Shown here piece after piece: positions 6,632-9,105 of a DNA stretch of 64,000 nucleotides. The stretch is from assembly GCA_965213625.1 (NCBI GenBank), contig CBDBZU010000004.1:864001-928000 (forward strand), read 5' to 3'. The stretch is from a bacterium. GTDB taxonomy: Bacteria; UBA8248. Every line of letters starts with the position of its first letter. The first letter of the stretch is position 1. Under the pieces are notes generated by a model, which saw only the letters and a list, made by a program, of their open reading frames with translations, was not told the origin of the DNA and did no database searches. The translations under genes were made by a program, and so were the position numbers.

Positions 6632-6706
6632 TGCGCATTTGTTTTCCCTTAGGGTAGCCGAATCATTCGCCTCTCTTTCAGGGGGTGATTGGCGGGAGGA
6701 GCGTCC

Positions 6707-7903
6707 ATGGAATTCACTTTGAATGATGAGCAAAAACGGATTCAGGGAATAGCCAGGAAATTTTCCTATGAAGAACTTGCCCCGGTGGCTCCCGAGCGTG
6801 ATCGGATTCAGAACTGGGAAGAACGCATGCCGTGGGATCTGACCGAAAAAGCGAGCGCTTTGGGCTTAAGGCAACTTCCATACCCTAAAGAATATGGCGG
6901 AATGGGTGCCGATGTGCTTTCGTGTTGTTTGGCAGGCGAGGAACTTGCCGCGGGTGATCTGGGTTTTGCGGTGAACCTTGACCAGACCTGGAAGCTGTCC
7001 CATATCCTGGAAAAAGTAGAGCCTGAAGTCAGAGATCCCTGGATTAAACGCTTGTGCGAAGAACCGAGGTTCCTGGCTGCGATTTCCATGACGGAAGAAG
7101 GAGCAGGGACAGACCATCAGGGCTATTACGATGATCCCTCCATCGCGCTTTATGCGCATGCGGAGAAAGAAGGTGGAAAATGGATCATCAATGGCAAGAA
7201 ACGCTATGTCAGCAATGGTCCTATAGCATCGTTGTACGTATTGGCGGCGAGAACCGACCTCAGTAAAAACTTGAGGGAAGGTTTAACCGGCTTTCTGGTT
7301 CCAAGAGAGACCCCCGGCATATCGATAGGCGAGGTGCATGAAAAAATTGGCCAGCGTCTTTCTATGAATTCAGAAATTTTCTATGAAGACATCGAGATCC
7401 CCGAAAACCATATTATCTTAGGTGAAGGAAACATGTTCGAAATCAGGGGGAATCTCCTATCGATGGGGAAACCGGAAGCAGCCGCTACAGCCTTGGGCGT
7501 TGGACGCGCCGCGTTCGAGAAAGCGCTGGCTTACAGCCGCGAACGTGTCCAGGGCGGCAAGCCCATCGGCCAGCACCAGGCGATAGAATCCATACTCGCT
7601 GATATGGCGATGAATCTGGACATTGCGCGCACATATATCTGGCGCACCGCCTGGGCTGTGGACCATCAAAAGCCTTATGATTTCACGCAAGGATGGAAAT
7701 GCAAAATTTTCGCTTCAGAGGTCGCCTTTGATTGCGCGCGTCTGGGCATGGAGGTATTCGGCGGCGCAGGCATCATGCACGACGCTCCCATGGAGAAATA
7801 CCTTCGCGATGCCAGTACGTTCTTGCATTCAGACGGCACGAATCAAATCTTGCGGTTGAGAACCGGGCAAGCCTATGTGAAAGGAGTGGCTACGGCGTTT
7901 TAG
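6707..7903 (+). CDS. Acyl-CoA dehydrogenase
   Basis: MEFTLNDEQ, PKEYGG, MTEEGAGTD, INGKKRYVSNG, RVQGGKPI..HQAI, FGGAG, MEKYLRD; GGAGGA RBS. Confidence 0.95.
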   Translation: MEFTLNDEQKRIQGIARKFSYEELAPVAPERDRIQNWEERMPWDLTEKASALGLRQLPYPKEYGGMGADVLSCCLAGEELAAGDLGFAVNLDQTWKLSHILEKVEPEVRDPWIKRLCEEPRFLAAISMTEEGAGTDHQGYYDDPSIALYAHAEKEGGKWIINGKKRYVSNGPIASLYVLAARTDLSKNLREGLTGFLVPRETPGISIGEVHEKIGQRLSMNSEIFYEDIEIPENHIILGEGNMFEIRGNLLSMGKPEAAATALGVGRAAFEKALAYSRERVQGGKPIGQHQAIESILADMAMNLDIARTYIWRTAWAVDHQKPYDFTQGWKCKIFASEVAFDCARLGMEVFGGAGIMHDAPMEKYLRDASTFLHSDGTNQILRLRTGQAYVKGVATAF

Positions 7904-7926: not shown

Positions 7927-8478
7927 ATGACGCGCCGGGTGGATAAATGGCGGCAGGGTGAATTGTTCCAGAAAGACGGTGAATCTCTGGAAAATCATGT
8001 TGCCGAATGGCTCCAGAAAGTGCGTGCGGAATTCTCCGTGTTTGTATCGGATAAAGGTATTGTGGAAATTAGAATGTTGAATGGCGTGGAAAAGCCTCTC
8101 GTGGCGGATCATGCGAGTGAGCAATCAACGCCGTTGAGTCGTCGAGCCTCAAAAGAGATAAAAGAGTATCTGGAGGGAACGCGAAAAAGTTTCGATTTGA
8201 AGACAGACCTCTCCTCCCTCACGCCTTTCATGATCAAAGTATTAATTGAGACGGAAAATATTCCTTATGGCGAGACGCGTTCTTACGGCTGGGTGGCGAA
8301 TCAAATTGGAAACCCGAAAGCTTCGCGTGCCGTAGGCCAGGCGTTACATAGAAATCCCGTTCCTCTTGTAATACCATGACACCGCGTTATCGCGAGCTCG
8401 GGCGAGCTCGGTGGGTTCGCAAGCAGCGTTTCTTTGAAGGTGGCGCTCTTGGCTCATGAGATGTATCACAAAAATTAG
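7927..8478 (+). CDS. ogt: Methylated-DNA--protein-cysteine methyltransferase, Sec-containing (UGA 8377-8379)
   Basis: IPYGETRSY, ASRAVGQAL..NPVPLVIP, then TGA followed in frame by HRVIASSGELGGFASSVSLKVALLAHE to TAG 8476-8478. Confidence 0.9.
8393..8410 (+). promoter_or_regulatory. Putative bacterial SECIS hairpin
   Basis: cgagctc-gggc-gagctcg: perfect 7 bp stem with G-rich loop, 13 nt after the UGA. Confidence 0.7.
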
Positions 8479-8529
8479 GGTATGCGGATTTTGCTTGGGC
8501 GCATCCTAAAAAAACTTGGGGGATGAAAG

Positions 8530-9105
8530 ATGTCAATAATGATGAATGATTTTATCGACCAAGTACGCGAAATTGTAAATACAGGAGGTACCGAAGAAGA
8601 AGTTACTGCTCGCGTAGCGGTGGTCCTTGAATCGATTTTGGATGAGCCGAACCTGTTGAGTGCCGACCAACTGTTAGTGAAAAAAGAAGGTTTTACGCTC
8701 AACCGGATTCACATAGAGCCGGATGAGAGCTTCTCTATAGGCGCCGGTATATGGGATGTGGGCCAGACCACCCCGATTCATGATCATGGTACCTGGGGAG
8801 TGATAGGCATTTACCGAGGAATGGAAAACGAAGAGAGTTTTTTGCGAGAAGGTCCGCGCGAAGAGGGCGCTCGCGTAAATCTTACGCCGCAGGGGAAACG
8901 CCTGGCAGGGCCTGGGGATGTTTTCGTCTGCTGTACGAAGGACCAAGATGTGCACCGCGTAAGCTGTGCTTCGCCTGAGCCTGTTGTGGGTATTCATGTC
9001 TATGGCGATGATCTCGCCAAGTTGACGCGCTATAAATATGAGGAATCAACCGGCGAGGTGAACTTGTTTGTCACAGGATGGGATTATGCGAAAATCTCCG
9101 ATTGA
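8530..9105 (+). CDS. Cysteine dioxygenase-family cupin
   Basis: W..GQTTPIHDHGTWG, DVHRV, GIHVYG. Confidence 0.85.
   Translation: MSIMMNDFIDQVREIVNTGGTEEEVTARVAVVLESILDEPNLLSADQLLVKKEGFTLNRIHIEPDESFSIGAGIWDVGQTTPIHDHGTWGVIGIYRGMENEESFLREGPREEGARVNLTPQGKRLAGPGDVFVCCTKDQDVHRVSCASPEPVVGIHVYGDDLAKLTRYKYEESTGEVNLFVTGWDYAKISD

Follow-up and report, generated by a model that had tools for sequence, protein, structure and literature searches.

A predicted selenocysteine codon at the alkyl-acceptor site of an Ogt/MGMT-type DNA alkyltransferase in the bacterial phylum UBA8248

Introduction

The 64,000-nucleotide stretch of bacterial DNA analysed here (contig CBDBZU010000004.1 of assembly GCA_965213625.1, positions 864,001 to 928,000, GTDB phylum UBA8248; hereafter the window) carries at 7927-8478 a gene for an O6-alkylguanine-DNA alkyltransferase of the Ogt/MGMT family, in which a TGA triplet stands where these proteins have their alkyl-accepting cysteine. 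This raises the question of whether the TGA is a stop codon, leaving a truncated protein that has lost its nucleophile, or whether it is read as selenocysteine (Sec), a costly residue whose presence at the acceptor site of a protein consumed once per repair would be an oddity. Our comparative analysis of the locus indicates that it very probably encodes a complete two-domain Ogt/MGMT whose nucleophile is the selenocysteine U151, specified by the UGA at 8377-8379.

The Sec-Ogt kind has been known since 2005, and the window gene adds a well-supported member to it and is not a discovery. A Sec-containing methylated-DNA-protein-cysteine methyltransferase, designated CHY0809, was reported in that year from Carboxydothermus hydrogenoformans, and in the passage that concerns it the case was judged unique and probably of very recent origin (Wu et al., PMC1287953). 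In the relevant parts of two later surveys the family is treated as known, with 2 Sec and 8 Cys sequences in a study of Olavius symbionts (PMC1976440) and 1 Sec and 2,879 Cys sequences in the Global Ocean Sampling study (PMC2398784), and excerpts of reviews of 2022 (PMC9312934) and 2026 (PMC13188914) list a Sec-MGMT family. The BSepDB paper of 2026 describes a screen of >64,000 genomes for all reported selenoprotein families; its ten most selenoprotein-rich bacteria include three metagenome-assembled genomes (MAGs) of the GTDB phylum UBA8248, with 48-54 selenoprotein genes each, which the paper labels Nitrospinota, Nitrospinaceae or Nitrospinae (PMC13326102). A literature search on selenocysteine and alkylguanine listed no biochemical study of a natural Sec-Ogt among its papers.

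Results and Discussion

The TGA occupies the active-site position of a two-domain alkyltransferase

The gene lies on the plus strand, starts with the ATG at 7927 and comprises 183 codons, one of them an in-frame TGA (8377-8379, residue 151), before it closes with TAG at 8476-8478. In frame, the sequence around this codon reads ...NPVPLVIP-TGA-HRVIASSGELGGF..., and decoding of the TGA as Sec gives the motif P-U-H-R-V. The original prediction, made from the letters of the window, had placed the TGA exactly on the invariant Cys of PCHRV, with the canonical C-terminus continuing in frame for 32 codons and a perfect 7-bp hairpin following at +13. Codon 151 indeed aligns with the active-site Cys of solved OGTs, the translation holds 32 sense codons between the TGA and the TAG, the hairpin is present as described below, and all coordinates and counts of that prediction proved correct.

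Assignment to the family is secure in that both PF01035 (104.1 bits, cut-off 27) and TIGR00589 (102.3 bits, cut-off 46.4) match above their curated cut-offs. The PF01035 match, the C-terminal DNA-binding and active-site domain, covers residues 100-178 (8224-8460, plus strand) and profile positions 1-79 of 81. The N-terminal ribonuclease-like domain of MGMT, PF02870, is found at residues 36-95 (8032-8211, plus strand) with 21.5 bits, barely above its cut-off of 21. The closest solved relative is the OGT of Mycobacterium tuberculosis (E 3.7e-23; 34-35% identity to the window protein), the catalytic Cys of which aligns with the UGA; PCHRV of 4wxc and 4bhc is aligned to P-U-H-R-V of the window protein. 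An AlphaFold model built from a 39-row alignment had a mean predicted local distance difference test (pLDDT) score of 85.1 and a predicted template modelling score (pTM) of 0.81, with an N-terminal extension of about 35 residues of which residues 1-9 were poorly modelled. When this model was compared with the PDB by Foldseek, ranks 1-37 were all OGT, MGMT, Ada or SNAP-tag chains matching over both domains (E down to 8.8e-12; target-normalised TM-score, TMt, 0.64-0.79; TM 0.66-0.76 for OGT/MGMT structures), and alignments with whole OGT chains spanned 150-165 columns. The predicted protein thus has the two-domain fold of the family, an N-terminal ribonuclease-like domain followed by a C-terminal helix-turn-helix domain.

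Human MGMT (1eh6) matches without gaps, its residues 105-174 lying on residues 111-180 of the query, which makes U151 the equivalent of Cys145, N143 of Asn137, H152 of His146, R153 of Arg147, E178 of Glu172, Y120 of Tyr114 and R134 of Arg128. Among these, human Tyr114 and Arg128, the arginine finger, have recognised roles in alkyltransferase function. The roles of Asn137, His146 and Glu172 in the human protein (AGT) are set out in the pertinent part of Haruna et al. 2014 (PMC4150793). Y120, R134, N143, H152 and E178 are invariant in 42/42 Sec rows and 13 Cys rows of our alignment, although the invariance of N143, H152 and R153, like that of P150, is partly circular because the search patterns demanded these residues, which takes something from its value as support for a working Sec enzyme. 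The activating network (Asn, His and Glu) is intact in the natural Sec forms, so selection has not relaxed it. The nucleophile sits at the C position of P-C-H-R-V with Se predicted in place of S, so that the strict name protein-cysteine methyltransferase does not literally apply.

The TGA is kept across the phylum

We then asked whether the TGA is peculiar to this genome by inspecting the orthologues in 51 species genomes of the phylum. In 43 of them the orthologue has one TGA, and in every one the TGA is at the PCHRV position (32 + 11 loci read). These comprise 23/23 genomes of the genus (the window's own genome included), 12 from other genera of its family, the single genome of family f2 (1/1) and 7/7 genomes of family f4, and the Sec form is thereby represented in 3 of the phylum's 4 families. 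A Cys codon, TGC or TGT, occupies the site in five genomes (G047, G048, G049, G053 and G026), and no orthologue was found with this query in G024, G056 or G042, the last being 67% complete. In outgroup genomes and in more distant matches from other phyla the site is TGT or TGC. An in-frame UGA is thus aligned with the Cys of homologues and retained among relatives, as the original prediction had proposed to check, and the contrary outcome that it had named, relatives with TGC or TGT and a TGA that is a private nonsense mutation or read error, did not occur. That prediction had also described Sec forms as predicted before and rare: the first part stands, whereas the second does not hold within this phylum, where Sec is the rule.

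Contigs from four sequencing runs carry the stretch with its TGA. Three of these are identical and could be what the window was assembled from; the fourth, which comes from another study, is about 97% identical with nine listed differences, none of them in the TGA.

The reading frame remains under coding constraint beyond the TGA

To see whether the part beyond the TGA is translated, we compared the proportions of nonsynonymous (pN) and synonymous (pS) differences among the 23 sequences of the genus (253 pairs). Over the 28 codons after the TGA, pS was 0.411 and pN 0.076, a pN/pS of 0.185 that equals the value for the 60 codons before the TGA, whereas the other two frames of the same bases gave 1.16 and 3.0. 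The drift downstream is thus mostly synonymous, in agreement with what had been anticipated, and coding constraint continues past the UGA. In addition, the frame is open for at least 32 codons past the TGA in 42 of the 43 TGA genes, and E178, one of the invariant residues named above, lies in this downstream part.

A hairpin at the position of a bacterial SECIS is conserved by compensatory changes

A bacterial selenocysteine insertion sequence (SECIS)-like hairpin occupies 8390-8414 on the plus strand (minimum-free-energy fold, with G8410 bulged). Its core stem has seven Watson-Crick pairs between a 5' arm at 8393-8399 (CGAGCTC) and a 3' arm at 8404-8410 (GAGCTCG), closed by the loop GGGC at 8400-8403, and 13 nt (8380-8392) separate it from the TGA. 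In SECIS elements of the E. coli fdhF type, the hairpin immediately follows the UGA inside the gene, and its apical loop starts with a G about 20 nt past the codon. The window hairpin shares the location in coding sequence, the distance of the loop from the UGA (~20 nt) and the initial G of the loop, but has no sequence likeness to that element and no Rfam family match.

We tested the single sequence by mononucleotide shuffling of the 60 nt after the TGA, requiring the loop to start 17-22 nt past the codon and to be 3-5 nt long; under this strict zone test 20 of 20000 shuffles reached at least seven Watson-Crick pairs. In the single sequence the hairpin is suggestive, and the weight that we place on it comes from its conservation in relatives and not from single-sequence statistics. 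Among 24 sequences from two genera, 147/147 cells pair, compared with 26-52% after a shift of the partner by 1-3 columns. Two of the seven pairs change on both sides in this set: at pair 21/30, 17 distinct rows have C-G and 4 have U-A, and at pair 18/33, 20 have G-C and 1 has C-G; pair 19/32 alternates between G-U and A-U. The changes either sit at third codon positions (Ala, Ser, Glu, Leu) or coincide with a Ser/Gly replacement. Other genera have C-G at pair 18/33 (L088, L090, L092 and L093) or A-U, a third pair type that occurs in a third genus (L097 and L098), and U-A at pair 21/30 (L096-L098). In families f4 and f2 the hairpin stretch codes for other peptides (GSRGDLRG and ASGGGLGG), yet a hairpin, of another sequence, lies equally far from the TGA, with the loops GGG and GGC. 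A stem of at least seven pairs (Watson-Crick or G-U) in the zone is present in 41/43 Sec forms compared with 2/15 Cys forms. The expectation that relatives would keep the hairpin was thus borne out, with pairing in every member of the genus, and a stem-loop directly 3' of the UGA is preserved by compensatory change.

The genome encodes the selenocysteine machinery

Decoding of UGA as Sec depends on the sel genes, and a lack of selABC had been named in advance as an outcome that would tell against Sec. The genome holds selA (564 bits) and a full-length selB (388 bits), the two genes overlapping, as well as selD (333 bits) and selC, the gene for tRNA-Sec (75.9 bits; identified by ARAGORN as tRNA-SeC with anticodon tca), all above curated cut-offs. 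The gene for release factor 2 (RF2), prfB, is also present (498 bits). The long open frames of the window most often end with TGA (26 of 47); since it is an ordinary stop elsewhere, there is no general recoding.

The selD gene, which lies outside the window (L011, about 1528-1530; G000 contig C4), is a predicted selenoprotein gene in its own right, with an in-frame TGA at ...AGG-TGA-GSK..., followed by a 6-bp hairpin with loop GGA that starts 14 nt past the TGA, a layout resembling that of the ogt hairpin. A genome-wide count of internal stops with open frame flanks and a SECIS-like hairpin after them gave no usable excess of TGA (425/15276, 2.78%) over TAA (145/5390, 2.69%) or TAG (149/6279, 2.37%), and we accordingly put no figure on the size of the selenoproteome.

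Public annotation ends at the TGA

We also looked at how the gene is represented in public protein sets. In 55 of the 58 closest public proteins, which are 63-94% identical, the sequence stops right before the TGA, most often at a length of 150 residues; the other three comprise one protein of 150 residues whose last residue is changed and two that are shorter, with frameshift-like ends. None of the 58 reaches past the TGA, and where they are named it is as methylated-DNA--[protein]-cysteine S-methyltransferase. A 150-residue stump that lacks the active site is, on our reading of the locus, an annotation error worth correcting.

Weighing the readings of the TGA

Several observations count against Sec decoding guided by the hairpin. 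Under a loose criterion (G-U pairs allowed, a wider zone, loops of 3-8) 785 of 5000 shuffles pass; this statistic, which picked an alternative G-U stem in the window, was dropped as too permissive and the strict zone test substituted. The fold energy of 8370-8450 is ordinary (z = -0.28, with 72 of 200 shuffles folding as well), and two Sec forms, L050 and L055, have one A-C mismatch inside the stem. The covariation comprises few events among related sequences, with the structure taken from one tested sequence. No Rfam family matched at gathering thresholds over the window, nor did any SECIS, and when 8340-8480 was searched at E up to 10, the sole match was a chance snoRNA on the other strand. 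Sec is not indispensable, given that five genomes of the phylum manage with Cys. Finally, the TGA orthologue of G028 (L051:797-844) is 1 nt shorter in the G run of its hairpin, and its frame is broken nine codons on, by either a homopolymer slip in assembly or the death of this copy.

These points must be set against the competing explanations of the codon. The simplest of these, a true stop, would give a 150-residue product with neither nucleophile nor C-terminal helix, which would be a decaying pseudogene or a damage binder akin to the alkyltransferase-like (ATL) proteins. The public sets hold exactly that product, RF2 is present, and the ATL proteins (Schizosaccharomyces pombe Atl1, 3gva, E 3.9e-07; Vibrio vpAtl, 2kif, E 3.9e-05) show that an MGMT domain can be useful when free of a nucleophile. 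Gene callers, however, yield truncated products at any Sec codon, and a stop is hard to reconcile with the constraint on the 28 downstream codons as opposed to the off-frame values, with the frame that stays open in nearly all TGA genes, with an invariant Glu past the TGA, or with a hairpin kept by compensatory changes; we regard termination at this codon as very improbable. The ATL proteins share with the window protein the C-terminal DNA-binding domain, but they have neither the N-terminal domain nor the nucleophile, whereas the window protein has both domains and a SECIS-backed UGA. Membership of the ATL group was rejected on these grounds, and the ATL chains match weakly.

Alternatively, the UGA might be read through without selenium, always or when selenium is scarce, by a near-cognate tRNA-Trp, giving PWHRV, or as Cys, giving an ordinary Ogt. 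PWHRV is the motif of ATL proteins. Against such decoding stand the full sel gene set and a hairpin at SECIS distance with a G-rich loop, which nearly all TGA forms keep and which is weaker or missing in the family's Cys forms, and TGA serves as the commonest stop in the window, with no general recoding; moreover, a TGG or TGC codon would be simpler, and five genomes did go to TGC or TGT. Nothing that we observed points to this explanation directly, and we give it little credence. A sequencing or assembly error, or a nonsense mutation private to the strain, can be regarded as refuted: we found nothing in its favour, the TGA is at the same codon in the 43 species genomes, and the contigs of four runs carry it, one of them a variant from another study. 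Sec at codon 151 is the reading that we adopt, with high confidence.

Proposed mechanism and comparison with known systems

According to this proposal, the hairpin at 8390-8414 would act as a bacterial SECIS and recruit SelB, carrying Sec-tRNA(Sec), to the ribosome standing at the UGA, which would be read as Sec in competition with RF2. The finished protein would bind DNA through its helix-turn-helix and flip out O6-alkylguanine, and the selenolate would take over the alkyl group irreversibly; like the Cys-type AGTs, each protein molecule would make a single repair and then be spent. A selenolate is already deprotonated at physiological pH, and transfer should consequently be faster or less dependent on activating residues.

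The genome encodes a second alkyltransferase, a full-length Ada of 352 residues, which lies outside the window (L100:542-1600, G000 contig C4) and combines the Ada zinc domain with an AraC-type helix-turn-helix, PF02870 and PF01035; its PCHRV has Cys. Every genome of the genus has a second match of Ada-like size that contains no stop, the copy examined being that of the window genome. Given this Cys-type Ada in the same genome, the Sec protein is most likely a constitutive Ogt-type enzyme beside an inducible Ada. The coexistence of a Sec-Ogt with a Cys-type Ada is one of the new elements of the present case.

The original prediction had suggested that spending Sec on a suicide reaction may point to a kinetic benefit or to recycling of the methylated Sec. 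A different account of why Sec is found phylum-wide would be that the protein or its selenium is re-used, the Se-alkyl adduct being, for example, dealkylated or the selenium salvaged; in a milder version, Sec would have been fixed early and then held by selection for a faster or broader transfer than Cys could provide. We consider re-use very improbable, given that no partner gene is conserved across the phylum and that five lineages have Cys in place of Sec.

With CHY0809, the window gene shares the PF01035 family, a UGA in place of the active-site Cys codon, a stem-loop directly after it and the full sel machinery, and both are computational predictions; the comparison is with the printed description of CHY0809 (UGA at the active-site Cys, then a stem-loop) in the portion of the 2005 paper cited above. 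They differ in that CHY0809 belongs to another phylum, whereas the lineage of the window holds Sec in 43/51 species and 3/4 families. What is new here is a Sec form that is stable across a phylum, unlike the recent one-off proposed for Carboxydothermus.

With the Cys-type enzymes (M. tuberculosis OGT, 4bhb and 4wxc; human MGMT, 1eh6; the C-terminal domain of E. coli Ada, 1sfe) the window protein has in common the two-domain fold (TM 0.6-0.76) and P-x-H-R-V together with the equivalents of Tyr114, Arg128, Asn137, His146 and Glu172. It departs from them in its predicted UGA-encoded Sec nucleophile, the recoding hairpin within the gene and the N-terminal extension.

An engineered counterpart exists in human AGT with Sec145, which, as reported in the available part of that work, protects E. 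coli lacking ada and ogt from N-methyl-N'-nitro-N-nitrosoguanidine (MNNG) (Haruna et al. 2014, PMC4150793). In the same text the N137A variant is active with Sec and dead with Cys, for which the authors invoke the low pKa of Sec. That protein, AGT U145, resembles the window protein in having Sec at the alkyl-acceptor position, but it was obtained on a human scaffold by an artificial route, with UAG and EF-Tu and without a SECIS (PMC4150793), whereas the window gene is predicted to use the natural UGA, SECIS and SelB. N137 is dispensable in the engineered protein (PMC4150793), whereas the natural Sec forms keep this Asn in 42/42 rows, a constancy partly forced by the search pattern. A naturally optimised Sec-AGT could serve as the scaffold of a faster self-labelling tag, although the practical interest of this is modest.

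Exchange of Sec and Cys within the phylum

To place the Sec and Cys forms relative to one another we constructed a quick maximum-likelihood tree from 55 rows (42 Sec, 13 Cys) and 134 columns, with the Sec/Cys position masked and the root not inferred; the frameshifted L051 and L087 were left out, as were L061, L079, L083 and L099. A branch with 94% support in the Shimodaira-Hasegawa-like approximate likelihood ratio test (SH-aLRT), which is not a starred branch, has the phylum's orthologues together on one side. The best tree has four Sec/Cys changes, and the starred branches force at least two; long outgroup rows are misplaced in it, and the direction and number of changes are only bounded.

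The clearest single case is G053 (L086, about 763, minus strand), which has TGC and nests with 98% support among the Sec genes of its own genus, the other three species of which have TGA. It keeps six of the seven hairpin pairs, with C-A at pair 21/30, and it looks as though Cys took the place of Sec not long ago, the hairpin being a relic of the SECIS. No hairpin survives in the Cys forms of genera g20 and g21. The simplest reading of these patterns is that Sec is an old feature of the phylum and that Cys has taken its place on several occasions, a direction of change that we infer, given the short alignment, the uninferred root and the misplaced outgroups. Natural Sec/Cys pairs within one genus, including a Cys form with a partly decayed SECIS, are likewise new here and offer material for a comparison of rates.

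Two of the Cys genomes gave further observations. In L087 (G048) the Cys orthologue is split into two frames before the active site, upstream of position 694, with matches that cover query residues 27-128 and 132-182 separately, which suggests a frameshift or an assembly error. G047, whose main orthologue has Cys, has in addition a weak second MGMT-like match (L099; contig C94, 6742-7005; 43.8 bits) with one TGA inside, and no PCHRV-type motif was present in the fetched stretch.

Neighbouring genes

The gene upstream of ogt, at 6689-7903 on the plus strand, encodes an acyl-CoA dehydrogenase (PF00441, PF02770, PF02771) and is the neighbour of ogt throughout the comparison in two genera of the family, the window's own and one other. 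Downstream, at 8530-9105 on the plus strand, is a gene for a cupin-like protein of 191 residues, for which Pfam gives a single weak match, to CDO_I (cysteine dioxygenase type I), whose 16 bits (E 0.009) fall short of the cut-off of 23. Several genera of the family have this gene directly after ogt, even where ogt is a Cys form, but it is not adjacent in the two other families checked. The whole arrangement, with the acyl-CoA dehydrogenase gene before ogt and the cupin-like gene behind it, is shared within the family, Cys forms included. Families f4 and f2 do not have it, nor does G026, and we therefore rejected a functional partner drawn from the gene neighbourhood and claim no partner gene. 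In those two families (L102-L108) the neighbours of the Sec-ogt resemble rpiB, glyA and nrdR, as judged by eye from the starts of the open reading frames. The same two neighbours as in the window flank a Sec-ogt of 83% identity on a contig of 2977 bases (L070) that is filed under a gammaproteobacterial MAG, and this contig is probably a mis-binned piece of the window's lineage.

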